A stretch of DNA of 64,000 nucleotides, from NCBI GenBank assembly GCA_041658765.1, contig JBAZZO010000012.1, positions 5,387 through 69,386 of the forward strand, read 5' to 3'. The stretch comes from Coriobacteriia bacterium (GTDB lineage: Bacteria; Actinomycetota; Coriobacteriia; Anaerosomatales; JBAZZO01). Position 1 is the first letter of the stretch; every line of letters starts with the position of its first letter. Made by a program: the position numbers and the translations under genes. The notes under the pieces are model-generated. The model saw only the letters and a list, made by a program, of their open reading frames with translations, searched no databases and was not told the DNA's origin. Below, piece after piece: positions 4,126 to 40,252 of the stretch.

Positions 4126-4170
4126 ACGCGCTAGTATCGGACGGGACCGACACACCTCGAGGAGGCCGGC

Positions 4171-4530
4171 GTGGACAACTGCATCTTCTGCATGATCGCG
4201 CGCAAGGAACTTGCCGCGAAGATCGTCTGGGAGGACGACGACCTGATCGCTTTCGACGACATCGCTCCGCAGGCGCCGGTCCATACGCTCATCATCCCGA
4301 AGGTCCACTTCGACGACCTCTCCTCCGACGTACCCTGGTCCGCTCTCGGGCAGCTCTTCGGCGCTGTCGGCCGCATCGCGAAGATGAAGGGCGTCTCAGA
4401 TAGCGGCTACCGCGTCATCGTGAACAACGGCAGGGACGCCATGCAGTCCGTCGGACACCTTCACGTGCACATCCTCGGCGGCGTGTCGATGTCTCACGGC
4501 ATGCTCCGGATGAGCGAAGAGGACCGGTAG
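4171..4530 (+). CDS. HIT family (histidine triad) protein
   Basis: 119-aa ORF with the histidine triad HLHVHILGG near the C-terminus. Confidence 0.85.
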   Translation: MDNCIFCMIARKELAAKIVWEDDDLIAFDDIAPQAPVHTLIIPKVHFDDLSSDVPWSALGQLFGAVGRIAKMKGVSDSGYRVIVNNGRDAMQSVGHLHVHILGGVSMSHGMLRMSEEDR

Positions 4531-4539
4531 GCCACGGCC

Positions 4540-6078: not shown

Positions 6079-6112
6079 CACGTTCGGCAGCGCTCGGAGT
6101 GTCCCATGACGT

Positions 6113-6146
6113 GGAACAGCCCCGGCCTTCGGGCCGAGGCTGTTCC
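6113..6146 (+). terminator. stem-loop downstream of the ASKHA gene (putative intrinsic terminator)
   Basis: GGAACAGCC-C-CGGCC-TTCG-GGCCG-A-GGCTGTTCC, followed by a pyrimidine/T-rich tail tattccttccctt. Confidence 0.55.
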
Positions 6147-6461
6147 TATTCCTTCCCTTGCTACCCCTGAGTCTCGTGTGGATGATCGTGCGGCTGGCCT
6201 GGAGTCCGCACCCGTCGCGATGCCGGTCGTCGACGGTCCACACATGTTCGCCGCGTCGGATCCCCCGACTGCGGCATTTTAGGGAAGGGAAACCGTTGAT
6301 GTGACAGTAGCCCATCCCGTATGTATATGCAACACCAGTTACATCCTAAATCGTGCCGTCCACCGACGATATCGCGCCGCTGACCCGACCACGGGGCGGT
6401 CGGAGCGGGTGTTACTCTACGATTGCAGTCGTTGGTTCGACCCGATCGGAGGAGGCCAAAC

Positions 6462-8453
6462 GTGACCGAGACAGTCTCGATCGAGTCCATGATGAAGGAG
6501 CTGCGGGTGGTCCAGCCGCCCGCATGGGTGTCGGAACGCGCCCACCTGAAGTCGATGGACGAGTACCACGCCATGTATCGTCGCTCCGTGGACGATCCTG
6601 AGGCCTTCTGGGCCGAGCAGGCCGAGGAGTTCCTGTACTGGCACAAGAAGTGGGACTCGGTCCTTGAGTATGAGTTCGACACACCGCGCGTGGAGTGGTT
6701 CAAGGGCGGTCAGACCAACGTCGCGTACAACTGCGTCGACCGGCACCTGACCACGTGGCGCAGGAACAAGGCGGCCCTCATCTGGGAGAGCGACGAGGGC
6801 CGCACCAAGATGTACACGTACCAGTCGCTCTACTACAAGGTCTGCCGTTTGGCGAACGTGCTCAGGAAGCGCGGCGTCAAGAAGGGCGACCGTGTCGCCA
6901 TCTACCTTCCCATGATCCCGGAACTGCCGGTCGCGATGCTCGCCTGCGCTCGCATCGGCGCCATCCACTCGGTCGTCTTCGGCGGCTTCTCCGCGGCGTC
7001 GCTGCGCGACCGCATCCAGGACTGCGGCGCGAAGATGCTCATCACCGCCGACGAGGGCATCCGTGGCGGACGCCCGGTCGCGCTGAAGGCGGCCGCCGAC
7101 GAGGCGCTGCTCGAGTGTCCGACCATCGAGACCTGCATCGTCGTCTCCCGCGCGCAGTCGCGCGTCGACATGGAGCCCGGCCGCGATGTCTGGTACCACG
7201 AGGAGGTCCGGGCCGCGGACATCCACCGTCACTGCGACCTGGAGTGGATGGATGCCGAAGACCCGCTCTTCATCCTCTACACGTCCGGATCTACCGGGAA
7301 GCCGAAGGGCGTCCTCCATACCACGGCGGGTTATCTGCTCTTCGCGACGATGACGATGAAGTACTCCTTCGACTACCACGACGAGGACGTCTTCTTCTGC
7401 ACCGCGGACATCGGCTGGGTGACCGGGCACAGCTACATCGTGTACGGTCCGCTCTCCCTAGGGGCCACCTCGCTCATGTTCGAGGGCGTGCCCACGTATC
7501 CCGACGCTGGCCGCTTCTGGCAGATCATCGAGAAGCACGGCGTCAACCAGTTCTACACCGCGCCGACCGCGATCCGCGCGCTCATGAAGGCGGGCGAGTC
7601 GTGGCCGGCGAAGTACGACCTCTCGAGCCTGCGCGTCATCGGCACGGTCGGCGAGCCCATCAATCCCGAGGCTTGGATGTGGTACTACAAGAATATCGCC
7701 CGCGAGAACTGCCCGATCGTCGACACGTACTGGCAGACGGAGACTGGCGGTCACCTCATCACGAACCTTCCGGGCGCGACTCCGATGAAGCCGGGCTCCG
7801 CCACGTTGCCGTTCTTCGGCATCCAGCCCGAGATCCTGAACGAGGACAAGTCCGAGACGCCCGTGAACGCCGGCGGGCGGCTGTGCATCAAGTTCCCATG
7901 GCCCGGCATGCTCCGCGGGACGTGGGGCGATCCCGAGAACAAGCTCGTCAAGGAGGTCTACTTCACGACCTTCCCGGGGCGCTACTTCACCGGTGACGGC
8001 TGTCGCAAGGACGAGGACGGCTTCTACTGGCTCATGGGCCGCGTCGACGACGTCATCAACGTCTCGGGACACCGCATGGGCACCGCTGAGGTCGAGAGTG
8101 CGCTGGTCAGCTACCCCGCGGTCGCCGAAGCGGCGGTCGTCGGGTTCCCGCACGAGATCAAGGGTGAGGGCATCTACGCGTACGTCAATCTCAAGACCGG
8201 CCAGGAGCCGACCGAGGATCTGAAGAAGATCCTTGCCGGGCACGTGGCGCACGAGATCGGCCCGATCGCGAAGCCCGACTACATCCACTTCGTGCCCGAG
8301 GTGCCCAAGACCCGCTCCGGCAAGATCATGCGCCGCATCCTGCGCAAGGTCGCGGCGGGCGAGCGCGACCTCGATGCGATGGGCGACATCTCGACGCTCG
8401 CGGATCCGACCATCGTCAAGACGATCATCGATTCGGCTCCGAAGTTCGACTGA
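6462..8453 (+). CDS. acs: acetyl-CoA synthetase (AMP-forming)
   Basis: Classic Acs sequence (YTSGSTGKPKG, WQTETGG, SGKIMRRILRK). GTG at 6462 lies 6 nt after GGAGGAGG; the ORF track starts earlier, at 6423. Confidence 0.93.
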   Translation: MTETVSIESMMKELRVVQPPAWVSERAHLKSMDEYHAMYRRSVDDPEAFWAEQAEEFLYWHKKWDSVLEYEFDTPRVEWFKGGQTNVAYNCVDRHLTTWRRNKAALIWESDEGRTKMYTYQSLYYKVCRLANVLRKRGVKKGDRVAIYLPMIPELPVAMLACARIGAIHSVVFGGFSAASLRDRIQDCGAKMLITADEGIRGGRPVALKAAADEALLECPTIETCIVVSRAQSRVDMEPGRDVWYHEEVRAADIHRHCDLEWMDAEDPLFILYTSGSTGKPKGVLHTTAGYLLFATMTMKYSFDYHDEDVFFCTADIGWVTGHSYIVYGPLSLGATSLMFEGVPTYPDAGRFWQIIEKHGVNQFYTAPTAIRALMKAGESWPAKYDLSSLRVIGTVGEPINPEAWMWYYKNIARENCPIVDTYWQTETGGHLITNLPGATPMKPGSATLPFFGIQPEILNEDKSETPVNAGGRLCIKFPWPGMLRGTWGDPENKLVKEVYFTTFPGRYFTGDGCRKDEDGFYWLMGRVDDVINVSGHRMGTAEVESALVSYPAVAEAAVVGFPHEIKGEGIYAYVNLKTGQEPTEDLKKILAGHVAHEIGPIAKPDYIHFVPEVPKTRSGKIMRRILRKVAAGERDLDAMGDISTLADPTIVKTIIDSAPKFD

Positions 8454-8482
8454 TCGACCGTCGTCCGCAAGGTTGTGTCCAC

Positions 8483-8530
8483 AGCCCCGGTACCCGTGTT
8501 TCGGCGGGGGTACCGGGGCTGGTTTTCTGT
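8483..8530 (+). terminator. rho-independent terminator after acs
   Basis: 13-bp perfect stem AGCCCCGGTACCC / GGGTACCGGGGCT followed by GGTTTTCTGTT. Confidence 0.75.
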
Positions 8531-8536
8531 TAGACT
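8528..8536 (+). promoter_or_regulatory. putative extended -10 promoter (TGtTAGACT) for hemE
   Basis: TGnTAGnnT motif 52 nt upstream of the hemE ATG. The same motif recurs at four other intergenic sites. Confidence 0.4.
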
Positions 8537-8587
8537 ATCTCGCGGCCTTCACCGGGCTGGCGATCCCTTACGAGAGGACCGATCCGC

Positions 8588-9643
8588 ATGCCGTTCGACG
8601 ATACCTTCCTGCGCGCCTGTAGGCGCGAGCCCACCGAGTTCACTCCCGTGTGGATGATGCGCCAGGCCGGCCGCTACTTGCCCGAATACCGGGCCATCCG
8701 GGAGCGTCACGGGTTCCTCGAGATGTGCCGTACGCCGGAGCTGGCCGTCGAGGTCACGCTCCAGCCGGTGGACCTGATCGGTGTCGACGCGGCGATCCTC
8801 TTCTCCGATATCCTCGTGCCCTTCCCGGGCATGGGCCTCGATCTCGAGTTCGCCAAGGGCGAGGGGCCGGTCATCCACAACCCGGTGCGCACGGTCGCGG
8901 ACGTCGACAAGCTGCGCGTCGCCGATCCCATCGAGGACACCGGCTTCGTCATGGACGCCATACGCATCCTCCGCCGCGAGCTGGTGGACAAGGTGCCGCT
9001 CATCGGGTTCTCTGGCGCGCCGTTCACCCTGGCCAGCTACATGATCGAGGGCGGTGGGACGCGCGACTACGAGAACTGCAAGGCTCTCATGTGGGGCGAG
9101 CCCGCGGCCTGGGACCGCCTCATGAACGTCACTGCCGACACGGTCATCGCGTACCTGTCGGCGCAGATCGACGCAGGGGCGCAGGCCGTGCAGGTCTTCG
9201 ACAGCTGGGTCGGTTACGTGGCTCCGCGCGACTACGAGCATTCCATCCTGCCGCACACGAAGCGAGTGATCGACGAGGTCTCGAAGAAGGGCGTCCCGGT
9301 CATCCACTTCGCCAATGGCGCGACTTCGATGATCGAGCTCGTCCAGCGGGCGGGCGGCGACGTCGTCGGCGTCGACTGGCGGCTCGATATGGCCGAGGCG
9401 CTCCAGCGGATCGACCCGCGATTCTCCATCCAGGGGAACATCGACCCGGTGGCGTTGTTCGCTCCCGACGACGAACTCGAGCGCATGGTCGTCGAGATCC
9501 TCGAGGCGTTCGGTACCCGGCCGGGCCACGTCTTCAACCTCGGACATGGGATCCACAAGACGACGGACCCGGCGAAGGCGAGGACCTTCGTCAGGCTCGT
9601 ACACGAGCACTCGCGCCGGATCCGCTCCGGCATGGAGGTGTAG
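8588..9643 (+). CDS. hemE: uroporphyrinogen decarboxylase
   Basis: 351-aa ORF with the RQAGRYLPEYR motif and UroD-like sequence over its full length. Confidence 0.92.
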   Translation: MPFDDTFLRACRREPTEFTPVWMMRQAGRYLPEYRAIRERHGFLEMCRTPELAVEVTLQPVDLIGVDAAILFSDILVPFPGMGLDLEFAKGEGPVIHNPVRTVADVDKLRVADPIEDTGFVMDAIRILRRELVDKVPLIGFSGAPFTLASYMIEGGGTRDYENCKALMWGEPAAWDRLMNVTADTVIAYLSAQIDAGAQAVQVFDSWVGYVAPRDYEHSILPHTKRVIDEVSKKGVPVIHFANGATSMIELVQRAGGDVVGVDWRLDMAEALQRIDPRFSIQGNIDPVALFAPDDELERMVVEILEAFGTRPGHVFNLGHGIHKTTDPAKARTFVRLVHEHSRRIRSGMEV

Positions 9644-9648
9644 GCGCT

Positions 9649-10662
9649 GTGGGAAAGTCGACAGAGGGCGTTCTGCTGCTCGGGTTCGGCGGCCCCGACT
9701 CCGTGGAGGAGATCGGACCGTTCATGTGCGAGCTCATGGGGCGTGAGCCTTCGGAGGAGCTGCTCGCGCGCGTCCGAAAGCGCTACCTGACGATCGGCGG
9801 GAAGTCGCCGCTGCCCGAGATCGCGGCGGAGATCGCTTCCGCGCTCGAGACGGAACTGGGGAAGCGCGGGCATGCCGTGCCGGTCCGTGTCGGCATGCGC
9901 TACTGGTCTCCGTTCATCGGACAGACCCTTCGCGAGATGTACGACTCCGGCGTGCGGCGAGTCGTGACGGTCAGCCTGTCGCCGTTCGAATCCGCGGTCA
10001 GTTCGGGAGCGTACCGCGATGCCGTCACGGAGGCTCTGGCCGGTCTGCCGGGTATGGAGGCGGTCGAGTCTCGGACCTACCACGACGCTCCAGACTTCAT
10101 CGGCCTTCTCGCGGGGGCGTCCGCGGACGCTCTCGAGCGTCTGGGCGAGGACTACCGCGAGCATGTCCTCGTCGTCTTCACGGCTCACAGTCTCCCGCTC
10201 TCCGACATCGCGGAGGACGGGACCTACGTCGTGCAACTCGAGGCGACCGCGCTCGCCACGGCCATCGCGCTCAAGCTCGGCCCCGCGACGGCTTTCAGGG
10301 GAGGCGAAGCGCTGCCCGGTATCGAGGCGTTCGGCGATCTGTCGACCGGTCGTCCGTGGCTCCTCGCATACCAGAGCAAGGGCCAGAAGCCGGGAGAATG
10401 GCTCGGCCCGGACGTCGAGGAAGTGATCGCCGCAGCTGCGGCGCAGGGTCTGACCGCCGTCGCCATTTGTCCGATCGGGTTCGTCACGGATCACATGGAG
10501 ACGCTCTATGATCTCGACGTCGTGGCCGCGGGGGCGGCGCTCGACGCCGGGCTGGAGTCGGTCAGGGCAACGGTCCCCAACGCCCACCCGGACATGATCC
10601 GGGTGTTCGCGGAGGCCGTGGCGTCGCTGCTGTCGCCGAGTGGAGAAGGAAGGCCCGGATGA
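9649..10662 (+). CDS. hemH: ferrochelatase (Gram-positive type, possibly coproporphyrin ferrochelatase)
   Basis: GTG at 9649 inside a long shadow ORF. Contains GVLLLGFGGPDS and ICPIGFVTDHMETLYDLD. Confidence 0.85.
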   Translation: MGKSTEGVLLLGFGGPDSVEEIGPFMCELMGREPSEELLARVRKRYLTIGGKSPLPEIAAEIASALETELGKRGHAVPVRVGMRYWSPFIGQTLREMYDSGVRRVVTVSLSPFESAVSSGAYRDAVTEALAGLPGMEAVESRTYHDAPDFIGLLAGASADALERLGEDYREHVLVVFTAHSLPLSDIAEDGTYVVQLEATALATAIALKLGPATAFRGGEALPGIEAFGDLSTGRPWLLAYQSKGQKPGEWLGPDVEEVIAAAAAQGLTAVAICPIGFVTDHMETLYDLDVVAAGAALDAGLESVRATVPNAHPDMIRVFAEAVASLLSPSGEGRPG

Positions 10663-12134
10663 AGAAGGTAGTCGTCATCGGTGGCGGGGTCGCCGGCCTC
10701 GGCGCGGCGTTCAAGGTGAAGCGGGCGGCCGACGCGGGGAACGACGTCACGTTCACGTTGGTCGAGCGCGACCCCCGTCTAGGCGGGAAGATCGCCTCCG
10801 AGGTCACGGGGGACGGCTTCATCATCGACGGCGGTCCCGACTGCTTCCTCACGAGCAAGCCGGCGGTCCATCGCGTCGCGGAGCTGATGGGGATCGACAA
10901 GGACAAGATGCCCACCGATGACAGCCGCAAGAAGACCCTCATCCTGTCGCGGGGGAAGCTCTACGAGATGCCCGACGGGGTCATGATGTTCGCTCCGACG
11001 AAGTTCGTCCCGTTCGCCACGACGGGGCTGTTCACCTGGCCGGGTAAGATCCGCGCGGGGATGGACCTCTTCGTCCCGAAGAAGCGTGTCGTGGAAGGCG
11101 AACTTAACGACGAGACGCTCGAGCATTTCATCCTGCGCCGCATGGGGCGCGAGATCCTCGACCGGCTCGCCGAGCCCCTCGTGGGCGGCGTGCACGCGTC
11201 CGATCCTGCGGTCATGTCTCTCGCGGCTACCTTCCCGAACCTGCTCGACATGGAGCAGAAGTACGGCAGCATGGTCCGCGGCTTCCTGGCCGCCCGCAAG
11301 ATGGTCGAGGCGATGAAGAAGAAGTACCCGCCCGACCCCGCGAATCCCAAGACGTTCTTCACGTCGTTCAAGCACGGCATGCAGGAGCTCACCGACACGC
11401 TGGCCGACGCGGCGGGCCGCGACAAGATACGCACGGGGGTCGCGGTCACGGCGATCAGCCGCTACGGGGACGCGTGGAGCGTCGCACTCTCCGACGGTTC
11501 GGTGGAGGCTTGCGACGCCGTGATCGTCGCGACCGAGTCCTGGGCGGCCGAGCCGCTGATGCGCCCGATCGACGAAGCGATCGCCGACGCGTTGGCGGGC
11601 ATCCCGTCGTCGTCTTCCGCGACCGTCTCCGTCGGGTTCGATGAGGACCAGGTCGGCATCGACATGAACGCCTTCGGCGTGCTCTGCCCGCTCGTGGAGA
11701 AGCGCTCGCTGATGGCGGCGACCTACTCGTCGACGAAGTGGCCCGGCCGGGCGCCCGAGGGCAAGGTGCTCCTGCGCGGATTCGTGGGAGGACCCCACAA
11801 CCAGGCGATCATGGAGCGCAGCGACGACGAGATAGGCGAGATCGTCCTCTCCGAGCTGCGCTCGATCCTCGGCGTCAAGGGCGAGCCCCTCTTCAAGAAG
11901 GTCTTCCGCTGGCACCTCGGGATGCCGCAGTACACGATGGGGCATCTCGACCGCGTGGCTACCGTCGAGGACCGCAGCGCCGACATCACCGGCCTCGCGC
12001 TCGCGGGGGGCAGCTACCGCGGTGTGGGGATACCGAACTGCATCGAGAGCGGCGAGCGGGCGGTGAGCAAGGTGCTCGGCGAGTGGGGCATCGACCTCGC
12101 TGAGGATCACGTCGAGGAGAAGCGCCGCTACTGA
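10659..12134 (+). CDS. hemY: protoporphyrinogen/coproporphyrinogen III oxidase, FAD-dependent (HemY/CgoX family)
   Basis: N-terminal dinucleotide-binding motif VVVIGGGVAGLGAAF. 491 aa. ATGA overlap with hemH. Confidence 0.88.
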   Translation: MKKVVVIGGGVAGLGAAFKVKRAADAGNDVTFTLVERDPRLGGKIASEVTGDGFIIDGGPDCFLTSKPAVHRVAELMGIDKDKMPTDDSRKKTLILSRGKLYEMPDGVMMFAPTKFVPFATTGLFTWPGKIRAGMDLFVPKKRVVEGELNDETLEHFILRRMGREILDRLAEPLVGGVHASDPAVMSLAATFPNLLDMEQKYGSMVRGFLAARKMVEAMKKKYPPDPANPKTFFTSFKHGMQELTDTLADAAGRDKIRTGVAVTAISRYGDAWSVALSDGSVEACDAVIVATESWAAEPLMRPIDEAIADALAGIPSSSSATVSVGFDEDQVGIDMNAFGVLCPLVEKRSLMAATYSSTKWPGRAPEGKVLLRGFVGGPHNQAIMERSDDEIGEIVLSELRSILGVKGEPLFKKVFRWHLGMPQYTMGHLDRVATVEDRSADITGLALAGGSYRGVGIPNCIESGERAVSKVLGEWGIDLAEDHVEEKRRY

Positions 12135-12998: not shown

Positions 12999-14912
12999 GT
13001 GCTCCACGACGGCTTCGCGTCCGCCACGCTCGCCGAGCCGCTCGCGCGGGAGCTGGAGGAGAGCGCCCGTCGCTGCAGGGGCGCGGTGCTGACCATGACG
13101 ACGCTCGCGGCGTCGGGTCATCCGGGCGGGTCGTTCTCCTCGATGGAGATCCTCACGCTGCTGTACTCCTTCGCCCGGCTGCGTCCCTCCGAGCCACGAT
13201 GGGCCGATCGCGACCGGGTCATCGTCAGCCATGGTCACACGTCGCCGGGGGTCTACTCCGCTCTGGCGGCGGCCGGCTTCTTCGATATCGACGACGCCGT
13301 GGCCCACTTCCGGCAGGCGGGCAGCCCCTTCGAGGGACATGTGGAGCGGTCCGTCCCTGGAGTCGAATGGTCGACCGGGAATCTCGGCCAGGGTCTATCC
13401 GCGGGCGTGGGATCGGCTCTCGCCGCGCGTATGACGCGCGGAGGGTGGCGCACGTTCGTCGCGATGAGCGACGCGGAGCAGCACAAGGGGCAGGTCGGGG
13501 AGGCCCGCAGGCTCGCCGTGAAGGAGGGGCTCTCGGACCTGACGGTCGTGGTAGACCTCAACGGGATCCAGATCTCGGGGCGTACGCGCGACGTGCTCCC
13601 GGTCGACGTCGCCGCGGACTATCGCGCCGACGGATGGGGCGTCATCGAGGCGGACGGTCACGACGTCCGCGACCTCTACGCGGCGATCGCGTCCGCCGTC
13701 GCCGAGCATGCCCGGCCGGTCGCCGTGCTCGCGAGGACGGTCATCGGCAAGGGCGTTCCGTTCATGGAGGGAGACCCCGAGTATCACGGACGGGCCCTGA
13801 GCGAGGAAGAGTACGTCGACGCGATGACGGTCTTGGGTCTCGCTCCCGGGCTTCAAGCGGCGCGGGAGCGCAGGACATCGCCCTGGGTCACCGCCCCGGC
13901 GCTGGTGGCCGCCGACCATCCGGAGCTGAAGACTGGCAGCCCCAGGGAGTACGGCGCCGATCACCCCACCGACTGCAGATCGGCCTGGGGAGCCGCGCTC
14001 CTCGATATCGCACAGGCGTCGCCCGGCGTCCCTCTGGCCGTGCTCGACTGCGACCTGGCGGCCTCGGTGAAGACCGAGGCGTTCGCCATCGCCCGGCCGG
14101 AGTCCTTCGTGGAGTGCGGAGTGGGGGAGCACAACGCCGCGACGGTGGCGGGAGCGCTGGCGGTGAACGGAGTGGCGGCGTTCTGGTCGGATTTCGGTGT
14201 CTTCGGTATCGACGAGGTCTACAACCAGCAGCGGCTCAACGACATCAACGGAGCTCCCGTCCGTCTGGCGGTCACGCACTGCGGTCTCGACGTCGGGGAG
14301 GACGGTCGCACTCACCAGTGCGTGGACTATGTCGGTACGCTGCGCAATCTGTTCGGCTGGCGCGTCATCGTCCCGGCGGATGCCGACCAGACCGACCGGG
14401 CCGTGCGCGCCATGGTCGCTTTCGATGGCCCCGTGGCACTGTGCGTGGGACGCTCGAAGCTTCCCGCGGTGCTCATGGCGGACGGCAGCCCGGCGTTCGG
14501 AGGGGACTGGGAGTTCCGCTACGGCGCCATCGACCGTGTCCGCGATGGGACCGACGCGTACGTGCTGGCGATGGGGACGCCCGTCGGGGCGGCGATCGCG
14601 GCGGCCGACGCGTTGCGTGCGGCCGGGGTCTCCGTCGCGGTCGGTGTCACCGCGAGTCCTCTCGAACTCGACGAAGCGGAGATGGAGTTCGCCGCTCGCG
14701 CCGGTCTGCTCGTCACGGTCGAGGACCACAACGTTCGCACCGGGCTGGCGGCCAGCGTCGCCGAGTGGCTCGCGCTTTCGGGAAGGACCGCGCGGCTGTT
14801 GCGCATCGGAGTCGAGGGATATGCGACGTCGGGGAGATCCGCCGACGTGCTCGCACGTTCGGGGCTCGACGCCGGCGGCATCGCTGCGGTACTCAAGACG
14901 GCGCTTCTCTAG
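12999..14912 (+). CDS. transketolase family protein (N- and C-terminal sections fused)
   Basis: GTG at 12999 lies 6 nt after GAGGAGG. Contains LAASGHPGGSFSSMEIL (TPP-binding N-terminal section) plus pyrimidine-binding and C-terminal domains. Confidence 0.85.
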   Translation: MLHDGFASATLAEPLARELEESARRCRGAVLTMTTLAASGHPGGSFSSMEILTLLYSFARLRPSEPRWADRDRVIVSHGHTSPGVYSALAAAGFFDIDDAVAHFRQAGSPFEGHVERSVPGVEWSTGNLGQGLSAGVGSALAARMTRGGWRTFVAMSDAEQHKGQVGEARRLAVKEGLSDLTVVVDLNGIQISGRTRDVLPVDVAADYRADGWGVIEADGHDVRDLYAAIASAVAEHARPVAVLARTVIGKGVPFMEGDPEYHGRALSEEEYVDAMTVLGLAPGLQAARERRTSPWVTAPALVAADHPELKTGSPREYGADHPTDCRSAWGAALLDIAQASPGVPLAVLDCDLAASVKTEAFAIARPESFVECGVGEHNAATVAGALAVNGVAAFWSDFGVFGIDEVYNQQRLNDINGAPVRLAVTHCGLDVGEDGRTHQCVDYVGTLRNLFGWRVIVPADADQTDRAVRAMVAFDGPVALCVGRSKLPAVLMADGSPAFGGDWEFRYGAIDRVRDGTDAYVLAMGTPVGAAIAAADALRAAGVSVAVGVTASPLELDEAEMEFAARAGLLVTVEDHNVRTGLAASVAEWLALSGRTARLLRIGVEGYATSGRSADVLARSGLDAGGIAAVLKTALL

Positions 14913-15454
14913 TCGTCGCCCCTGCGGACGGCGCGAAGCACCGCTGCCCCGTCAGCGTCGCCGGCGCACTCCACCGGGACGATCCCGCGCTCGGCGAGGA
15001 CGGCGAGGACGGCATCGACTGCCGCAGGCACCGCGGCGGCTACCTCGGGTGAGAGCCCTATCTCCGGGCCGCCGATGTCGCGGGCCTGCACCCCGACGAA
15101 GGTCGCCTGGGGCCGGGCGCCGATCAGTTCGGCCGCCTGCAGGACGTCGATGAGCCGGACGTCGTGCAGCGAGTGCATCACCTGGTTCCCCGCGACGTCC
15201 TCCGCGGCGACGCGCACGACCGTTCCGGGAGGCTCGCCGGTCCCGTCGACCGCGTCGACCACGAGCAGGAAGTCGCATTCGCGGAAGAGGTTGAGGATGC
15301 CCATCCCCATCGTTCCCGCGTCGATCACGCGGACGTGATCGGGGAACTCGAACCGCGAGAGGAGCTCCTCGGTGACGCGGGGGCCTATCCCTTCGTCGCG
15401 GCAGAGCGGGTTGCCCACCCCCATGACGGTGATCCGCTCGGGAGCTGAAGTCAC
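14909..15454 (-). CDS. hydrogenase maturation endopeptidase (HyaD/HybD family)
   Basis: VMGVGNPLCRDEGIGPRV and VVDAVD motifs. It is the last gene of the minus-strand hydrogenase operon. Confidence 0.88.
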   Translation of the reverse strand: MTSAPERITVMGVGNPLCRDEGIGPRVTEELLSRFEFPDHVRVIDAGTMGMGILNLFRECDFLLVVDAVDGTGEPPGTVVRVAAEDVAGNQVMHSLHDVRLIDVLQAAELIGARPQATFVGVQARDIGGPEIGLSPEVAAAVPAAVDAVLAVLAERGIVPVECAGDADGAAVLRAVRRGDD

Positions 15455-15498
15455 GGCGTTCCTCCTCCCTGTGGTCTCGTGTGCGGGTCCGATGAAGA

Positions 15499-15528
15499 GC
15501 CGGGCCCCGGGATGTCCCGGGGCCCGGC
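15499..15528 (-). terminator. perfect 14-bp GC-rich palindrome between the cytochrome b and protease genes (intercistronic hairpin or partial terminator)
   Basis: GCCGGGCCCCGGGA-TG-TCCCGGGGCCCGGC. On the minus strand it is followed by tcttcatcgg. Confidence 0.45.
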
Positions 15529-15551
15529 CGGTCGTGCGATGGCGCGTGGTG

Positions 15552-16199
15552 CTAGTGCTCCTTCGCCGGAGTCTCCTTCTGGAAGAACATGAGCGGCAGA
15601 GCCTCGATGTCCTCCGCGAGAGACAGGTAGACGTGGATCATGGTGATCAGGATGAAGACCCACATGATGAAGAAGTGGATCTCCCGCATGATCATCAGCC
15701 CACCGACGAGGCTCGTGCCCCACGAGAAGAACGTCATCCGGGCCGCTGGGCCGTAGATGGCGAATCCGGTGTAGCCCTGTGCGATCAGTAACGGGATCAT
15801 CGCCAGGTACGCCGTCTTCTGCATGGGATTGTACTTGCCCGAGATCGGATGGGTCTTGCGCAGGAAGAGGTAGTACTTGATGGTCTCGAAGAACTGACCC
15901 TTGTTCTCCTCCTGGAATCCCCAGTTCTTGCGGTCCCTCGCGATCTCGCGCGTCCCCTTCGTCAGCGTCGAACCGCCACCCATGAACGCCCAGTAGATGC
16001 GGCAGACGAGGGTGATCAACACGACGTACATGAAGATGAAGTGGAGCGTCCTCATGAGTTCCATGTTGCCGTTGAAGAAGGGCTTGTGGATGTAGAAGCC
16101 CGTGAAGCCGAGGGCGACCATGCTGATCAGGTGCGACCAGTGCATGAGCGTCGCCGGCAGGGGATGGGCTTCCCTGTATGCTCCGTGGGACATACGCAT
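15552..16199 (-). CDS. Ni/Fe-hydrogenase b-type cytochrome subunit
   Basis: Four predicted TM helices with conserved His residues; HyaC/CybH-like. The ATG at 16199..16197 overlaps the read-through stop of the large subunit (TGATG). Confidence 0.88.
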   Translation of the reverse strand: MRMSHGAYREAHPLPATLMHWSHLISMVALGFTGFYIHKPFFNGNMELMRTLHFIFMYVVLITLVCRIYWAFMGGGSTLTKGTREIARDRKNWGFQEENKGQFFETIKYYLFLRKTHPISGKYNPMQKTAYLAMIPLLIAQGYTGFAIYGPAARMTFFSWGTSLVGGLMIMREIHFFIMWVFILITMIHVYLSLAEDIEALPLMFFQKETPAKEH

Positions 16200-17836
16200 C
16201 ACAACCCGACGGGCTTGGAGAGGACTGTCGCCTGCTTCTTCGTCTTGGGTTCAAACACGTGAACCCCGCACCCGATTCAAGGATCGAAGCTATGTACGAT
16301 GCGCAACGCTTCGAGCGGCTTGGTCGGGTCCTCGACGGGAGCGCCGACGAGCGCTTCCTCCAGCGGACCGCGCTGGCCGTCCTTGTCGCGCGGGGACATG
16401 TCCCACGTCGACGGGGCGATGACCTGGTAGCGGTCTATCTTGCCGCCCTTGACGGTCACCCAGTGTCCGAGAGCGCCGCGAGGCGCCTCCCAGAGGCCTA
16501 CGCCTTCGCCGTCGGTGGCGTCGCTGGTCTCGAAGAACTTCGAGTCCCCGCCCTTGATCGCGGCGACGAGATCGTTGACCCAGCCGAGGGCCTTGTCGGC
16601 GATGTACTTCGCCTCGAGGTTACGGGCCGCGACGCGGCCGAGCAGCGAGAGAAGCACTTCCGGCTTGCCCGCGACGCCGAGCGCCGCGAGTGTGCTGTCG
16701 ACGAGCTCCTTGATCTCGGGAACGCCCGAGACGTATCCGACGAGCATGCGGGAGAGCGGGCCGACCTCCATGGGCTTGCCGTCGTAGCGCGGCGCCTTCA
16801 CCCAGGAGTACTTGTCGTCGACGTTGTAGTCCTTGTACTCCATCTTCGTGACGCCCTTGGCCGGATTCAGATTGCCGGAGTCGGACGTGAACCAGGAGTG
16901 GTCCACGTACTCCATGATCTTCGTCGGATCGGCCTCGAGGACGGATAGCTGACCGCCCATGATGACGCCACGAGGCAGGGCGCGCTTCTTCGGGTCCATC
17001 GACTCGTCGTCGAAGACACCCCACGCGAGGTGGTTCCCGACGCCCTTGCCGTACGTCGCGGCGTCGATGTAGAACGGGGCGATGGCGAGGGTGTCCGGGA
17101 TCATGGTGTTCGTGATCCAGTCGCGGACCTTCGTGAAGCGGAAGAGTATGTCGTCGAGCTTCTCCTCGGTGGGGACCCACACGGTCCCGCCGGGAAGCGA
17201 CGTCATGAAGTGCGGGAACTTGCCGCCCATCACGGCGATGATCGCTGCGGCCTCGGCCTGGATCTCCAGGGCCTCGAGGTAGTGCGCGACGGCGATCAGG
17301 TTGAGTTCGGGCGGAAGCTTCATAGCGGGGTGGCCCCAGTAGCCGTTCGTGAAGATCGACAACTGGCCGCCCTCGACGAACTTCTTGACGCGGGTCTGGA
17401 CTGCGCCGAAGTCGGCGACGCTCGTTCCCGCCTTACTCGCGAGAGCATACGTGTCGGCGATGTCCGCTGAGAGCGCGGAGACCACGTCGACGTAGTCGAG
17501 CGCGGTGAGCGTGTAGAACCACAGCACGTGGCTGTGGAGTGACTCGGCCGCCTCGATGAGGTTGCGGATGATCCGCGCGTTGTTCGGGATCTTGATGTTC
17601 AGCGCGGCCTCCGAGCCCATCGTGGAGGCGTGACCATGTGAGATGGGGCAGACGCCGCAGATGCGCTGCGCGACGTAGAACGCGTCGGCAGGTTCGCGGC
17701 CCTGCAGGACCGTCTCCATGCCACGGTAGAGGCCGCCGGACGCCCAAGCGTCCTTGACCTTCCCGCCCTCGACTTCGATCTCTACGCGGAGATGACCTTC
17801 GATGCGGGTGACTGGATCGATGACTGCACGAGTCAC
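16199..17836 (-). CDS. [NiFeSe] hydrogenase large subunit, selenocysteine encoded by in-frame TGA at 16279..16277 (545 aa including U)
   Basis: N-terminal Ni-ligand motif RICGVCPISHGHAS. The track ORF ends at HSFDP-TGA. Read-through gives DP-U-IGCGVH followed by VFEPKTKKQATVLSKPVGL, ending at TGA 16201..16199. Confidence 0.85.
16247..16266 (-). promoter_or_regulatory. candidate bacterial SECIS hairpin
   Basis: On the minus strand, GGGUUC(A)-CGUGUU-(U)GAACCC begins 11 nt after the UGA. The stem is 6-7 bp and the apical loop contains GU. Confidence 0.6.
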
Positions 17837-18972
17837 TGGTTATCGCCTCCCTTCGCGCTCTTCTTCTGCTTCTCCATGGGAGCACCGTGCCCCATGCGGC
17901 CCGTCGCGACCTGGGCGACGCCGTGGACTACGAGACCCGCGGCGGCGACAGCGCCGAGCGCCGCGCCGATGGTGTCGGGCTTCACGCCGCCGATACCCGG
18001 CAGCGGGATGTCGGCCAGCCGGTTGAGGAACGGAGCGTCCCTGTCGACCCAGTTCAGGTTGCCGCAGCCGATGCATGGGCTGCCGGACTCGACACACCAG
18101 TTGACACGGCGGTTCCAGCGCACGTTCGGGCAGTTCGTCTTCGTCTGGGGGCCCTTGCAGCCGACCTTGTAGAGGCACCACTGCTTGGCTTCCTCGGGCG
18201 TGCCGAACGTCTCGACGAACTCGCCGTTCTCGAAGTGACCGCGACGCGGGCAGTTGTCGTGGATCGTCGACCCGTAGATGAGCGTCGGGCGACCCTCTTC
18301 GTCCAGTTCAGGGAGCTTGCCGATGAGAAGCGCGTCGACGACCATCGCGACGATCCACTCGGGGTTCACGGGACAGGTCGGGAGGTTGATGAGCGGGACT
18401 TCACCGAAGCCGAGCTCCGCCGCGACCTGCTTGACGCCGGTGGCGTTCGCGGGGTTCGGTGCGGCCTTCACCCAGCCGCCGTCGACCGCGCACGAACCGA
18501 CCGCGATGATGGCGTCCGCGTTCGAGCAGACGTCCTTGAGGTGTTCCGTGCCGGTCTTGCCGGCGATGCGAAGGGTGTTGCCGTCGGCGCCCTGCATAAC
18601 GGAGCCCTCGATGATGGCGATGTAGCCGCCCTTGTCGATGGTGTCCTTCTTTGCCTGCTCGGCTTGTTCACCTGCGGCGGCCATGACCGTCTCGAAGTAG
18701 TTGAGTGAGAGAAGGTCCAGCACGATCGAGGCTACGTCGGGATAGTCGACCTGTGCGATCGACTCGGTGCAGCCCGTGCACGAACCTAGGTTGAGCCAGA
18801 TAGCCGGCTTGAGCGCGGCGCCCTTCTCGATCGCCGCGGCGATCTGCGGAGCGGCCATCTCGGACAGCCCGAGCATCGCCGCGAGGGTGCCACAGTACTT
18901 GACGAAGTCACGCCGGGTCACCCCGCGTGCCGCGAGCGCATCGTCGAGGACGCTTCGCGTCTCTTGCGCCAT
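17833..18972 (-). CDS. [NiFe(Se)] hydrogenase small subunit, Tat-exported, with a C-terminal membrane anchor
   Basis: Twin-arginine signal TRRDFVKYCGTLAAMLGL. Fe-S cysteine clusters are present, including NWCVESGSPCIGC. ATG at 18972 lies 8 nt after AAGGAGG. ATGA overlap with the large subunit. Confidence 0.9.
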   Translation of the reverse strand: MAQETRSVLDDALAARGVTRRDFVKYCGTLAAMLGLSEMAAPQIAAAIEKGAALKPAIWLNLGSCTGCTESIAQVDYPDVASIVLDLLSLNYFETVMAAAGEQAEQAKKDTIDKGGYIAIIEGSVMQGADGNTLRIAGKTGTEHLKDVCSNADAIIAVGSCAVDGGWVKAAPNPANATGVKQVAAELGFGEVPLINLPTCPVNPEWIVAMVVDALLIGKLPELDEEGRPTLIYGSTIHDNCPRRGHFENGEFVETFGTPEEAKQWCLYKVGCKGPQTKTNCPNVRWNRRVNWCVESGSPCIGCGNLNWVDRDAPFLNRLADIPLPGIGGVKPDTIGAALGAVAAAGLVVHGVAQVATGRMGHGAPMEKQKKSAKGGDNQ

Positions 18973-19374
18973 ACCATACACCTCCTTGGATGCGTTCCTG
19001 CTGACAGTACGTTCGGGACCGCGACGGCGGTCCGGTTCGGCGGTACCGCTATCGGCATCCTCCTCTCAGGCGGAAAGACCCGGGGATCGTCCTGGACGGG
19101 ATCTCAGGCCGCGCGCCACCCGGGAGGGTCGCGCCGGCCGATGCCGGAAGGTGGACGCGGGCAGAGGCGCCCGAGGGGGAAGCCCAGGTGGGTCGGGAGC
19201 AGGAGCGGGAGTCTCGACTTGGACGCGCCGGAAAGGCAGTCGACGTGGCGGTGAGCCCCGACTCCGGGCGAACGCACGTGAGTGCGTGACTGTCCATAGC
19301 CCCCTCAGACCACACAGCTTTCACCGGACAGCAGGCAGCCAGCTGCGACGGCAGGCCGGCACCCACCGACAACT

Positions 19375-20179: not shown

Positions 20180-20893
20180 ATGGAACCTGTCGATCAAGAG
20201 ACACGGGTGGATGTCGGCGTAGTCGTCGCCAAACTTCGGACGCTGCCGCTCTTCGCCGAGCTCTCTCCTGCCGATCTGGCGGCTCTCGCCGGGCTCGTGA
20301 CGTACCATCGCCTCCCCAAGGGGGCGATCATCGTGGCGCAGCACGAGCGAGGGTCTTCGATGTATCTCCTCGTCTCCGGACGGGTGAAGGTCTCGCTCGC
20401 GGCGCCCGACAACAGGGAGCTCGCTCTGAGCTTCCTCGACGCTCCCGCGCACTTCGGTGAGATGAGCCTGGTCGACTCGGAGCCGAGGTCGGCCGACGTC
20501 ACGGCGATGACCAACGTCGAAGTGCTCCAGATCGACGGGAAGGACCTCTCCGCGGCGATACAGCTGCAGCCCAGATTGGCGCTCTCGCTGATCGCGACGC
20601 TCTCGCGCCGGCTGAGGCAGACCATCTCGCGCCTGGAGGACCTGGTCTTCCACGACGCGACGCATCGCGTGATGCGCGTGCTGCTGAACGTGGCCACCGC
20701 TTCGTACGAGACCTGCGGCGTGCCGGTGATCGGCGGGATGACGCAGTACCAGATCGCTACGCTCGCGGGCACGTCTCGCGAGACGGTCAGCCGGGCGGTG
20801 TCCGCGCTCGGCAAGGAGGGCGTCCTCGCCACGAAGGGCCGTCGGATCGTCGTCGACATCGTCCGGCTGCGCGAGCGTCTCGAGACCGACTGA
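20180..20893 (+). CDS. Crp/Fnr family transcriptional regulator
   Basis: cNMP-binding beta-barrel (HFGEMSLVDSEPRSADV) plus a C-terminal HTH (QYQIATLAGTSRETVSRAVSALGKEG). Confidence 0.88.
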   Translation: MEPVDQETRVDVGVVVAKLRTLPLFAELSPADLAALAGLVTYHRLPKGAIIVAQHERGSSMYLLVSGRVKVSLAAPDNRELALSFLDAPAHFGEMSLVDSEPRSADVTAMTNVEVLQIDGKDLSAAIQLQPRLALSLIATLSRRLRQTISRLEDLVFHDATHRVMRVLLNVATASYETCGVPVIGGMTQYQIATLAGTSRETVSRAVSALGKEGVLATKGRRIVVDIVRLRERLETD

Positions 20894-20992
20894 TCGTTCG
20901 GGACGCGTCGGGTCCTCCTCCCGCGGGGGATAGACCCCCTATGGGTCCGCGCTGGCGACGGCGGACGTCCGAAGGATCACGGGAGGCCCCAC

Positions 20993-21220
20993 ATGAAGGA
21001 GTTCACTGCCGAGGAGCTGGCGGGTTTCGACGGCAAGGACGGTCGTCCGGTCTACGTCGCGTACAAGGGTGTCGTCTACGACCTCTCCGACAGCACGATG
21101 TGGCTCGAAGGCGAACATGGCGACACGCACTTCGCGGGCGTCGACCTCACGGTCGAGCACGAGGACGCTCCGCACGACGCCCTGGTGACCGACTTCCCCG
21201 AGGTCGGGAAGCTCGTCTAG
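20993..21220 (+). CDS. cytochrome b5-like heme/steroid-binding domain protein
   Basis: 75 aa. MKEFTAEELAGFDGKDGRPVYVAYKGVVYDLSDSTMW is typical of small b5-like proteins. Confidence 0.7.
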   Translation: MKEFTAEELAGFDGKDGRPVYVAYKGVVYDLSDSTMWLEGEHGDTHFAGVDLTVEHEDAPHDALVTDFPEVGKLV

Positions 21221-26059: not shown

Positions 26060-27631
26060 ATGGTCCACGCCAAGGGCACCACCCCGCAAGGTCACGGCGA
26101 GCTGCTCACCGTGCCGCCGTACGTCGAGTGGGCCGCGCTCGCCCGTGCGAACGCGCGTGTCGCGGCAGCGCTCGACGTGCGGATCGCGGGCGTTCCGGCG
26201 CGCGAGCTGCGCGCGGAAGCTCGCGAGACCGCGCTCGCGGCGGCCGCTGAGTTCTCGCGGTACCTAGGCGTCGAGGTGACGAGCGGCGCGGGGGCCGGCG
26301 CGCCGCTCGTGATGACCGGCCACCAGCCGCAGCTCTACCACCCCGGTGTCTGGGCGAAGGTCTTCCTGTTGCAGCGTCTCGCACAAGAGATCGGGGGCAC
26401 GGGCATCGACCTTGTCGTCGACTCGGACGGTTTCGACGCGGTCGAGCTGACCGCTCCGTGTCTTCGCCCGGAGATCGAGCGATGCCGCCAGTACCTCGCG
26501 ATCGGCGGCACGGATGCCTGCTACGCATGCTCTCCGGTGCCCTCGCTGGCGGACATCGAGACCTTCCGCGTGGCTGGGGAGCAGATGCTCTCGACCCTGC
26601 CCGCCCCGGCCCTGCCGAGGCATTTCGGCGCTTTCTGCGACGCGCTGGCATCGGCGAACACAGATGCGCGCAATCTCGCGGAACTCGTCACCTTCGCGCG
26701 CAGACGTTACGAAGCGAGCGCCGGGACGACGTACCTGGAGCTTCCCGTGACCGAGGAGGCCGTCACGGCACCGTTCCGGCGCTTCGCCGTGTCGCTGCTC
26801 GGGGAGGCCGAGCGGTTCGCACTGGCGTACAACGAAGCGCTCGCGGCGTACCGCGCGGCGAATCGCGTGCGCTCGGTCGTGCAGCCGTTCCCGGACCTGA
26901 CGTTCGACGGCGATCTCGTGGAGACGCCTTTCTGGCTGGTGGGTGAGCGTGGGCGCACGGCCGTGTGGGCGCGTCAGGGCGACGTGACGGAACTGCTCGC
27001 CGGCGGCGAGGTCGTTTGCCGGCTGCCCGCCGACCCCGATGCGGCCGTCACCGCTCTCGAGGAGTCGGGTGTCCTGCTCGCGCCGAAGGCCGTCGTACTC
27101 ACCGCATATCAGCGACTGCTCGTCGCGGATCTGTTCATCCACGGTGTAGGCGGAGGGCGCTACGACCGCGTGACCGACGACGTGGTCCGCCGCTTCTTCG
27201 GTGTGGACCTTCCGCCCTTCGTGGTGGCGTCGCTGACCGTCCAGCTCCCGCTGGGTGCGAGCGTGGTCGGCGACCGCGAGGTGGAGGAGGCCGAGAGGCG
27301 CGTGCAGACGGCGGAGCACAACCCCGACCGTCTGCTCGACGAGGTGGAGTTCGACGACGAGGCCGAGCGTGAGCGGGCCGAAGCGCTCGCTGAGGAGAAG
27401 GCGCGGCTCGTCGCCGCGATCGAACAGCCGGGAGCGGACCGCAAGGCGCTGGGCGCGGCGATCCGAGACGCGAACGCCGGGCTCGCGGACGTGCTCGCGC
27501 CGCTGGTGGCGGAGGCGCGCTCGCGCGCCGAGGACCTGCGCGCGCGCCGCGACGCGGCGGACATCCTCACCGACCGCACCTACCCGTTCTGCCTCTGGAG
27601 CCCACAGGAGATCCAGGACAAGGTGGGGTAA
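26060..27631 (+). CDS. BshC-like protein (putative cysteine-adding enzyme family), divergent
   Basis: The by-eye layout matches B. subtilis BshC: VMTGHQPQLYHPGVWAK vs VVGGQQAGLLTGPLYTIHK, IHGVGGGRYD vs IAGPGEINYW, and LPPFVVASLTV vs MPPVMPRLNIT. There is also a C-terminal coiled-coil-like segment. Confidence 0.5.
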   Translation: MVHAKGTTPQGHGELLTVPPYVEWAALARANARVAAALDVRIAGVPARELRAEARETALAAAAEFSRYLGVEVTSGAGAGAPLVMTGHQPQLYHPGVWAKVFLLQRLAQEIGGTGIDLVVDSDGFDAVELTAPCLRPEIERCRQYLAIGGTDACYACSPVPSLADIETFRVAGEQMLSTLPAPALPRHFGAFCDALASANTDARNLAELVTFARRRYEASAGTTYLELPVTEEAVTAPFRRFAVSLLGEAERFALAYNEALAAYRAANRVRSVVQPFPDLTFDGDLVETPFWLVGERGRTAVWARQGDVTELLAGGEVVCRLPADPDAAVTALEESGVLLAPKAVVLTAYQRLLVADLFIHGVGGGRYDRVTDDVVRRFFGVDLPPFVVASLTVQLPLGASVVGDREVEEAERRVQTAEHNPDRLLDEVEFDDEAERERAEALAEEKARLVAAIEQPGADRKALGAAIRDANAGLADVLAPLVAEARSRAEDLRARRDAADILTDRTYPFCLWSPQEIQDKVG

Positions 27632-32899: not shown

Positions 32900-32928
32900 G
32901 AAGGAGGAGGCCTTACGCCTCCTCCTTC
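32900..32928. terminator. 12-bp perfect hairpin between tRNA-Arg and the convergent EF-G-like gene (possible bidirectional terminator)
   Basis: GAAGGAGGAGGC-cttac-GCCTCCTCCTTC. The loop contains the EF-G-like stop codon (tta on the plus strand, 32913..32915). On the plus strand the hairpin is followed by tccttctt. Confidence 0.5.
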
Positions 32929-34970: not shown

Positions 34971-35104
34971 TGCGTCTCCTCCTTCACGCGCCACGCGCGT
35001 TCTCCGTATCGAGCGGCCGTCGCCGTTGGGCGTGGCGGCCGGGCAACAGCGTAGCAGGACGACCGCGCGAGCGCATGCCCCGGCACCCGCGCGGGAAGGA
35101 CGGC

Positions 35105-39565: not shown

Positions 39566-39567
39566 CC

Positions 39568-40251: not shown

Positions 40252-40252
40252 G

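Follow-up and report, generated by a model that had tools for sequence, protein, structure and literature searches.

The stretch of DNA considered here (the window) comprises 64,000 nucleotides (nt; 68% G+C) of contig JBAZZO010000012.1 from a Coriobacteriia bacterium of the order Anaerosomatales (assembly GCA_041658765.1) and carries, on its minus strand, a hydrogenase operon whose large-subunit gene contains an in-frame TGA codon (16277..16279). Comparative sequence analysis makes it very probable that this TGA is read as selenocysteine (Sec). The product of the operon would then be a [NiFeSe] hydrogenase of the Coriobacteria-type lineage that is bound to the membrane, linked to cytochrome b and active in respiratory H2 uptake. 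The [NiFeSe] interpretation was first put forward in a sequence-only reading of the window and is supported by the position of the codon, the conservation of the TGA and of the frame downstream of it, a covarying hairpin that is found exclusively in genes of the TGA type and the composition of the operon. All of these are observed, as is Sec machinery in one relative.

The operon and the codon at the nickel-ligand position

The operon is arranged in the order small subunit, large subunit, cytochrome b and protease, all on the minus strand, and the same order is found by synteny in the relatives L082 and L083. The hydrogenase small subunit (17833..18981; Pfam PF01058 and PF14720; TIGR00391 at 330 bits, above cutoff) carries a twin-arginine signal with the motif RRDFVK, and its stop codon overlaps the GTG start of the large subunit (GTGA). 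As called, the open reading frame (ORF) of the large subunit (17836..16277) encodes 519 amino acids (aa) and ends ...RIVHSFDP (LEALRIVHSFDP), followed by TGA 16279..16277. Read through this codon, the full-length gene spans 16199..17836 and 545 codons including Sec520, and its true stop, TGA 16201..16199, overlaps the ATG of the cytochrome b gene (TGATG). The end of the ORF, the read-through sequence and the overlapping true stop had all been described in the sequence-only reading, and translation reproduced their coordinates throughout. In the public gene call for the source contig (ENA ERZ27247322, k141_168743, 72,766 bp), the large subunit is a 519-aa protein and 77 nt before the cytochrome b gene are left uncalled, which agrees with the earlier expectation that standard ORF calling would shorten the gene and leave about 75 nt apparently non-coding.

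The next gene encodes a Ni/Fe-hydrogenase b-type cytochrome subunit, the membrane anchor (15552..16202; PF01292, E = 1.1e-29; TIGR02125 at 125 bits, above cutoff), which starts either at the ATG 16199..16197 or at an alternative GTG at 16202. After a gap of 97 nt, it is followed by a HyaD/HybD-type (HycI/HyaD) hydrogenase maturation endopeptidase (14909..15454; PF01750, E = 1.9e-28; TIGR00072, E = 1e-39). The sequence-only reading had placed a protease of this type two genes downstream of the large subunit, and it is indeed encoded there, at 15454..14909. The proposal that the genes of the operon are tightly coupled holds for the small/large (GTGA) and large/cytochrome b junctions, but not for the cytochrome b and protease genes with their 97-nt spacing.

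To place the TGA relative to characterized enzymes, the stop was swapped for Cys and the resulting 545-aa product was compared to PDB sequences by phmmer. Full-length matches to group-1 [NiFe] enzymes were obtained (1frf_L, E = 2.7e-146; 3myr_B, E = 1.9e-144), in which FDP-C-IGCGVH of the query corresponds column for column to FDPCIACGVH of D. fructosovorans, D. gigas and A. vinosum, and the alignment with 1frf extends into the C-terminal tail. This confirms the claim that the TGA occupies a nickel-ligand position, namely that of the first Cys of the DPCxxCxxH motif. Within DP-U-IGC-GVH, UGA codon 520, read as Sec, would therefore supply the first of the two ligands in the C-terminal UxxC, while codons 521-526 (IGCGVH; 16259..16276) provide the second C-terminal nickel ligand, Cys523, and His526, the expected endopeptidase site. 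The N-terminal nickel-binding CxxC (Cys60 and Cys63; 17648..17659) lies within RICGVCPISH, residues 58-67, whose cysteine columns are invariant in an alignment of 24 homologues. Behind His526, the frame continues with a C-terminal extension of 19 aa, VFEPKTKKQATVLSKPVGL (16202..16258), which is presumed to be removed; judging from established [NiFe] maturation, cleavage would take place after His526.

Conservation of the frame and a hairpin behind the TGA

The relatives of this gene were collected at the protein and at the DNA level. For the protein search, the 519-aa ORF served as query against 5.8 billion proteins. All of the 120 best matches listed (66-100% identity) end in ...SFDP, and the named matches among them are proteins from Coriobacteriia metagenome-assembled genomes (MAGs), annotated as 'nickel-dependent hydrogenase large subunit' or '[NiFe] hydrogenase large subunit'. 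Truncation at SFDP is thus a fixed property of the clade and not an accident of one contig. The DNA-level scan, with one genome per species, returned 80 loci, and the codon at the Sec position is TGA in 20 of them (TGA-type) and TGC or TGT in 56 (Cys-type). The TGA loci comprise every locus with a readable motif at an identity of at least 62%, as well as L020 and L021 (57%) and the outliers L022 (56%) and L080 (50%). Their hosts are environmental Coriobacteriia, an Anaerosomatales MAG (L047, 62% identity), Coriobacteriaceae sp. EMTCatB1 (L012) and the outliers. TGC or TGT is found in gut Eggerthellaceae, whose enzymes have a 20-aa tail, and in Nitrospirota/Deltaproteobacteria-type enzymes with a 15-aa tail.

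Past the TGA, the frame remains open in 20 of 20 TGA-type relatives, through a tail of 15-21 aa, and the motif xGC[GA]VH is kept in 19 of them. The tail of TGA-type genes (e.g. VIEPKTGKEATVLTKAWGVK) is homologous to that of the Cys-type Eggerthellaceae (VTEPATGKSFETVTSPWGVK), and 20-aa tails (V.EPKTGK...WGVK) occur in Sec- and Cys-type relatives alike. The conserved frame and the homologous tail behind the TGA argue that translation continues through the codon, ruling out a pseudogene and a sequencing error.

The second conserved element is a hairpin resembling a bacterial selenocysteine insertion sequence (SECIS), GGGUUCA/CGUGUU/UGAACCC (16247..16266, minus strand), with a 7-bp stem and a 6-nt loop (16259..16254). 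Its first paired base is the 11th nt past the UGA and its apical loop begins 17 nt past the UGA; both the sequence of the hairpin and its 11-nt position, as given in the sequence-only reading, were reproduced. Loop positions 2-3 are GU (G 16258 and U 16257, i.e. nt 22 and 23 if the U of the UGA is nt 1) and at the same time form the first two bases of a conserved Val codon. In Escherichia coli fdhF, the loop bases that are critical by this count are G23 and U24; G22/U23 of the window is a presumed resemblance and does not serve as a test. As the hairpin overlaps the codons for G-V-H-V-F-E-P, the putative RNA signal and the protease cleavage site share the same 20 nt.

An alignment of the 48 nt after the TGA was built from 21 TGA-type sequences. 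The helix columns 14-20:27-33 are fully paired in 17 of the 21 sequences and include GC-to-CG swaps at 14:33 (four sequences) and 15:32 (seven sequences), which accompany residue changes from Gly to Ala in the 5' arm and from Pro to Arg in the 3' arm. When RNAalifold is given the 17 sequences that are in register, its consensus structure is precisely this helix of 7 bp, at -10.19 kcal/mol and with covariation at two pairs. In a control set of 40 Cys-type sequences, the same columns pair in 55% of the cells, and the individual pairs A20:U27 and U18:A29 are formed in 6 and 11 of the 40 sequences, respectively. The local folding free energy is -9.9 +/- 1.3 kcal/mol for TGA-type and -4.5 +/- 2.9 kcal/mol for Cys-type sequences (Mann-Whitney p = 5e-9, uncorrected for relatedness). 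The variability of wobble positions points in the same direction: codons +5 to +9 show an entropy of 0.28-0.70 bits in TGA-type genes versus 0.72-1.9 bits in Cys-type genes, and the TGA-type genes' own codons -20 to -6 reach 1.1-1.8 bits (0.89 at codon -15).

The element was also compared with a published model of bacterial SECIS elements (bSECIS), which allows loop lengths of 3-9 nt and upper stems of 4-16 bp and demands a G in the first two loop positions, a UGA-to-loop distance of 16-37 nt and a minimum free energy of at most -7.5 kcal/mol (PMC13188914). The window element falls within these limits (loop CGUGUU of 6 nt, stem of 7 bp, spacing of 17 nt, -9.0 kcal/mol), and the constraints are passed by 18 of 21 TGA-type sequences versus 0 of 50 Cys-type sequences. 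The claim of a SECIS at the expected position thus finds support in the agreement with the bSECIS constraints and in the conservation of the covarying hairpin in TGA-type sequences only. As to the suggested check by a SECIS predictor or covariance model, the published bSECIS model is passed, and none of the Rfam models matches. The support for the hairpin comes from the comparison with relatives and not from the energy of a single sequence.

Several variations of this region were observed. In the subclade L010-L013, which includes Coriobacteriaceae sp. EMTCatB1, the hairpin reads (U)GUCCAC-GUG-GUGGAC(A), with a one-nt shift and a loop of nominally 3 nt; within its helix GUCCAC/GUGGAC, the position of the 5' arm is unchanged and pairing occurs one nt closer. 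The tail of these proteins changes together with the shifted hairpin (Glu to Asp and Pro to Thr), which indicates, judging from the aligned sequences, that the structure is maintained by coordinated change of RNA and protein. The closest genomic relative, L001, reads DP-U-VGCGVQ (11555..11602), with Gln (CAG) replacing the His of the protease site, and its hairpin is altered in step to an 8-bp stem with the loop GUCA; the Gln may be genuine or may stem from a faulty assembly. L022 and L080 are TGA-type genes from outside the Coriobacteriia and belong to a clade with 15-aa tails that passes NCBIfam NF033181. Their hairpin (GGUUCACGUGAUUGAACC) is almost the same as that of the coriobacterial genes, a likeness which, from sequence, may be due to shared ancestry, transfer of the 3' end or convergence. 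A lower stem (columns 5-10 with 36-41) can be formed in many relatives, is weak in the window and is not claimed as part of the element.

In addition, the five codons in front of the UGA (16280..16294, minus strand; His/Arg-Ser-Phe-Asp-Pro) display near-zero synonymous variation in TGA-type genes (also in L001-L021 and L047). Nearly all TGA-type genes use AGC TTC GAT CCT here, with A/T-ending codons despite a G+C content at third codon positions of about 88%, and the wobble entropy is 0-0.59 bits versus 0.58-1.62 bits in Cys-type genes. These fixed codons may reflect a context requirement for Sec insertion against termination.

Selenocysteine machinery and other readings of the codon

In the TGA-type relative L020 (Actinomycetes MAG Md513_bin57), the hydrogenase operon is immediately preceded by selD, tRNA-Sec, selB and selA (3899..9978). 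These genes comprise selA (8306..6753; PF03841, E = 6.8e-133), selB (6877..5243; GTP_EFTU as well as SelB winged-helix and beta-barrel domains), a tRNA-Sec (5212..5116; anticodon TCA according to ARAGORN; Rfam RF01852 at 75.9 bits, with a gathering score of 47) and selD (3899..4885; AIRS domains), which is preceded by an in-frame TGA in SSKAG-U-AAK; the hydrogenase small subunit follows at 8791..9978. This gene order shows that Sec decoding is present in the clade and that its genes can lie next to those of the hydrogenase. When SelA, SelB and SelD of L020 were used as tblastn queries against the window and the loci L001-L081, only L020 itself was matched, and none of the other loci contained a match within 10 kb. 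In the window, ARAGORN detected one tRNA, a tRNA-Arg, and a Pfam search of about 55 window ORFs yielded no SelA, SelB or SelD, the GTPase at 32913..34994 being EF-G.

Several results weigh against the interpretation of the TGA as a Sec codon. Neither the window nor the other 8.8 kb of the source contig (72.8 kb in all) contains selA, selB, selD or tRNA-Sec, which makes Sec decoding a presumed trait of the source organism, and the literature searched yielded no report in which selenium had been shown biochemically in an enzyme of the clade. Folding of the single sequence does yield the hairpin, but the energy of the 71-nt region is ordinary (z = 0.28 at 68% G+C). No SECIS family was recovered from Rfam, either at the gathering threshold on the whole window or in a permissive scan of 16100..16400, which returned only a chance match to a lncRNA (long non-coding RNA) family (E = 7.9). 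RNAalifold does not recover the hairpin when all 21 TGA-type sequences are used, because the hairpin of L010-L013 lies in a shifted register. Furthermore, the nucleotides of the stem encode the conserved residues G/A-V-H-V-I/F-E-P, so that their conservation is partly a matter of the protein, and the shuffle and Mann-Whitney statistics ignore phylogenetic relatedness.

Among the other readings of the codon, insertion of a different residue survives best. The UGA might be decoded as Cys, through a mis-charged tRNA(Sec) or a suppressor tRNA, or as Trp or Gly, as in alternative genetic codes. Read-through is well supported, the identity of the residue is deduced from sequence and tRNA-Sec was not found on the source contig, all of which would be compatible with such decoding. 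It is nevertheless very unlikely. The stop codons of 45 Pfam-supported window genes are TGA in 26 cases, TAG in 16 and TAA in 3; TGA is therefore the commonest true stop, and it also terminates the large subunit itself, so that TGA has not been reassigned genome-wide and the recoding is specific to the site. A scan of the window for in-frame TGA codons with coding-like composition on both sides returned only the hydrogenase site as credible. In addition, the site-specific hairpin fits a SelB-type SECIS model, the TGA-type relative L020 has the full sel set beside the operon, and Trp or Gly could not ligate nickel.

Less probable still is a genuine stop, which would turn the gene into a pseudogene or leave a truncated subunit without C-terminal nickel ligands, followed by 77 nt of non-coding sequence. 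Standard gene callers do end the gene here, as seen for the source contig and in NCBI and JGI records, and the lack of Sec machinery on the source contig would be in line with termination. However, 20 genomic relatives and all 120 of the best protein matches listed share the TGA, which is thus fixed across about 35% sequence divergence, and the frame behind it retains xGCxVH and a tail homologous to Cys-type enzymes. According to established [NiFe] biochemistry, a subunit that lacks two of four nickel ligands would be unable to assemble the active site. The dedicated protease and cytochrome b genes of the operon are intact.

A sequencing or assembly error in place of TGC or TGT, which would make this an ordinary Cys-type [NiFe] enzyme, is effectively refuted by the sequences of the relatives and hardly worth crediting. 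Although a single base separates TGA from TGC or TGT and the source is a short-read metagenome contig, the TGA recurs in assemblies that many studies produced independently, among them contigs as long as 0.86 to 2.7 Mb, and is accompanied by a hairpin and by wobble constraints that are absent from Cys-type genes. Just as implausible is a split subunit, with a 519-aa protein and a separate small peptide supplying the C-terminal ligands as in Methanococcus voltae VhuA/VhuU; split [NiFeSe] large subunits are known in methanococci (VhuU, PMC13188914), but there is no start codon between the TGA and GCGVH except for codons within the motif, Cys-type relatives are single continuous ORFs and, with the TGA codon itself being the first missing ligand, a separate peptide would have to start upstream, in frame and inside the 519-aa ORF.

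For the preferred reading of the TGA as a Sec codon, we infer by analogy with known systems how Sec insertion in the source organism, cleavage of the tail, export and coupling to quinone would proceed. A ribosome would meet UGA520 while the hairpin (16266..16247) is still folded in the mRNA; a complex of SelB, GTP and Sec-tRNA(Sec) would bind the hairpin and supply Sec in competition with release factor 2, allowing translation to proceed through IGCGVH and the 19-aa tail to the stop that overlaps the cytochrome b start. The Ni-Fe center would be ligated by Sec520, Cys523, Cys60 and Cys63, and the HyaD-type protease would cut after His526 once nickel has been inserted. Finally, the twin-arginine translocation signal of the small subunit would take the dimer across the membrane, and electrons would reach the quinone pool by way of three Fe-S clusters and the cytochrome b anchor.

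Relation to known hydrogenases and neighboring genes

[NiFeSe] hydrogenases are valued because they produce H2 rapidly and both resist O2 damage and recover from it. Those characterized to date belong to a limited range of sulfate reducers and methanogens. A close counterpart of the window enzyme is the periplasmic HysAB of Desulfovibrio vulgaris Hildenborough and Desulfomicrobium baculatum (HydDB group 1a; PDB 5jsu, 2wpn, 1cc1; NF045518), with which the window enzyme shares Sec in place of the first Cys (UxxC), a UGA a few codons before a short C-terminal extension and a dedicated maturation protease. It also shares a small-subunit Cys where enzymes with a [3Fe-4S] cluster have Pro, implying a medial [4Fe-4S] cluster. 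The host of the window, in contrast, belongs to the Actinomycetota and not to the sulfate reducers, and its protein matches classical [NiFeSe] enzymes at 1e-111 to 1e-93 as compared to 1e-146 for standard [NiFe] enzymes. The window operon moreover includes a cytochrome b anchor, which HysAB is not known to have; this anchor suggests a quinone-linked respiratory enzyme. The claim for the nickel-ligand position is upheld by the alignment with solved [NiFe] large subunits. A small correction is that the protein resembles standard group-1 [NiFe] enzymes and the lineage of the Coriobacteria type more than it does the classical Desulfovibrio [NiFeSe] enzymes.

The medial cluster can be followed in the small subunit, which reads NWCVESGSPCIGC (NWC) where 1h2a_S and 1yq9_A have NWPVDAGHPCIGC (NWP), a replacement of Pro by Cys; D. 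vulgaris Miyazaki and D. gigas accordingly show NWPV.AGHPCIGC at the site of NWCVESGSPCIGC. In the Dm. baculatum structure, a fourth small-subunit Cys at the medial cluster gives three [4Fe-4S] clusters. On the basis of established [NiFeSe] work and of Pro-to-Cys mutants, a medial [4Fe-4S] instead of a [3Fe-4S] cluster is therefore predicted. This Cys was considered as a Sec-specific marker and rejected, since it is present in 63 of 63 readable relatives of both the Sec and the Cys type; it represents a trait of the lineage and not a companion of Sec.

Family models place the enzyme near, but outside, curated [NiFeSe] families. NF045518 (HysA, group 1a) is matched at 459.7 bits, in two stretches and below its cutoff of 780. 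The best NCBIfam model is NF033181 ('NiFeSe_hydrog'), which covers the full length including the C-terminal motif and the tail at 551.1 bits. This score is under the 600-bit cutoff, as are those of other Coriobacteriia (Adlercreutzia, 511; EMTCatB1, 515). Members of a neighboring clade pass this cutoff, both the Sec-type L022 (614 bits) and the Cys-type L016 (621 bits), and differ by their 15-aa tail from the 20-aa type of the window lineage. The position of the coriobacterial clade outside NF033181, a neighboring curated family with Sec members, probably explains the truncated NCBI records. In neighbor-joining trees of the read-through proteins, which are quick distance trees and indicative only, 20 coriobacterial TGA-type sequences, including the window, form one clade as sister to the Cys-type Eggerthellaceae, while L022 and L080 are found at the base of the 15-aa-tail clade.

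In the HydDB classification, group 1i ('Coriobacteria-type') has been split from group 1a, and [NiFeSe] variants are given only for groups 1a, 3a and 3c (PMC5037454). Judging from its sequence, the window enzyme is probably a member of group 1i, cytochrome b-linked and from Actinomycetota. The Cys enzymes of this group (Eggerthellaceae and others) agree with it in operon composition, in the 20-aa type of the tail, in an identity of 48-57% and as the sister clade, whereas those of gut Eggerthellaceae differ by their TGC or TGT codon and by the lack of a hairpin. For the first Anaerosomatales isolates, a cluster of small subunit, large subunit, cytochrome b and protease was classed as 1i [NiFe] by HydDB, with selenocysteine left unmentioned (PMC9686372). 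Selenocysteine is likewise absent from the study of Coriobacteriaceae sp. EMTCatB1, in which the homologous enzyme of TGA-type L012 is called a 'NiFe hydrogenase' and reported to be highly expressed on a biocathode (PMC7943316). A 2026 review confines [NiFeSe] hydrogenases to sulfate reducers and methanogens, and a full-text search of the literature for NiFeSe together with Coriobacteri* turned up only the HydDB paper (PMC5037454). Overlooked genes with a UGA taken as stop are also shared with the methanogen group 3 Sec hydrogenases (FrhA/FruA, VhuA/VhuU) and with the group 4 [NiFeSe] enzymes described in 2026, of which the bacterial ones likewise have a SECIS with a G in the first two loop positions (PMC13582414). 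These enzymes belong to other hydrogenase groups than the window enzyme; the archaeal ones use a SECIS in the 3' untranslated region, and the Sec of the group 4 enzymes lies in the N-terminal instead of the C-terminal motif.

[NiFeSe] hydrogenases in this lineage and enzyme context appear to be unreported, and they are systematically mis-annotated. We consider it somewhat more probable than its opposite that environmental Coriobacteriia (OPB41/Anaerosomatales and allies) harbor a large, unrecognized clade of membrane-bound, cytochrome b-linked [NiFeSe] enzymes, in which Sec is fixed, all public entries are truncated and the sister group is formed by the Cys-only gut Eggerthellaceae. If so, HydDB group 1i would constitute a natural Sec/Cys pair, and the statement that restricts [NiFeSe] hydrogenases to sulfate reducers and methanogens would be contradicted. 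The Sec ligand would occur in a different enzyme context, a quinone-linked, cytochrome b-anchored uptake hydrogenase of Actinomycetota. Cultured H2-oxidizing isolates exist in the Anaerosomatales, and their close Cys-type relatives in gut Eggerthellaceae would allow Sec and Cys to be compared in a natural setting. As the 120 closest entries inspected are cut at SFDP, their large subunits are recorded without two of the four metal ligands, and a selenium dependence of H2 metabolism would be missed in these subsurface, peat and bioelectrochemical organisms. Since the mechanism is a textbook one, the result adds to an established kind of enzyme instead of defining another; it amounts to a useful annotation correction and a modest extension of [NiFeSe] occurrence.

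The window also contains a second hydrogenase operon (37668..41515, plus strand), which is group 3b-like (sulfhydrogenase-like). It consists of a Fer4_22 beta subunit (37668..38693), a FAD/NAD gamma subunit (38690..39565), a small delta subunit (about 39568..40254) and a large subunit (40253..41515) with the Cys-type motif DPCLSCAVH, in which the stop follows right after the His and no C-terminal extension is present. With Cys in the second enzyme, the organism would have one Sec and one Cys hydrogenase. Further downstream, an Rnf-type complex (41655..46692, plus strand) includes an RnfC-like gene (41655..42956), two Rnf-Nqr membrane subunits (44369..45202 and 45043..45822) and an RnfB-like Fe-S protein (45853..46692). 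Some bacteria have an RnfC that is a selenoprotein; in the window scan, the RnfC-like gene had no in-frame TGA.

The hydrogenase operon is flanked by genes for acetyl-CoA synthetase, uroporphyrinogen decarboxylase, ferrochelatase and a protoporphyrinogen-oxidase-like flavoprotein (6423..12134, plus strand), in an order that is kept in L083. One may speculate that the flanking heme genes link heme supply to the cytochrome b subunit. Upstream of the operon lie a Crp-family regulator (20180..20893) and a cytochrome b5-like gene (about 20990..21220). Two long ORFs, 27640..30756 (minus strand, 1038 aa) and 26060..27631 (plus strand, 523 aa), are called on the source contig as well and have no Pfam match. 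Lastly, the 2.67-Mb contig of L082 holds, in the region 13851..17388, another small-subunit gene (15707..16831), the second of this contig, with a HycI protease gene directly behind it but no adjacent large-subunit call; a 549-aa minus-strand call without Pfam match lies upstream of this small subunit, and its region may represent another miscalled large subunit.

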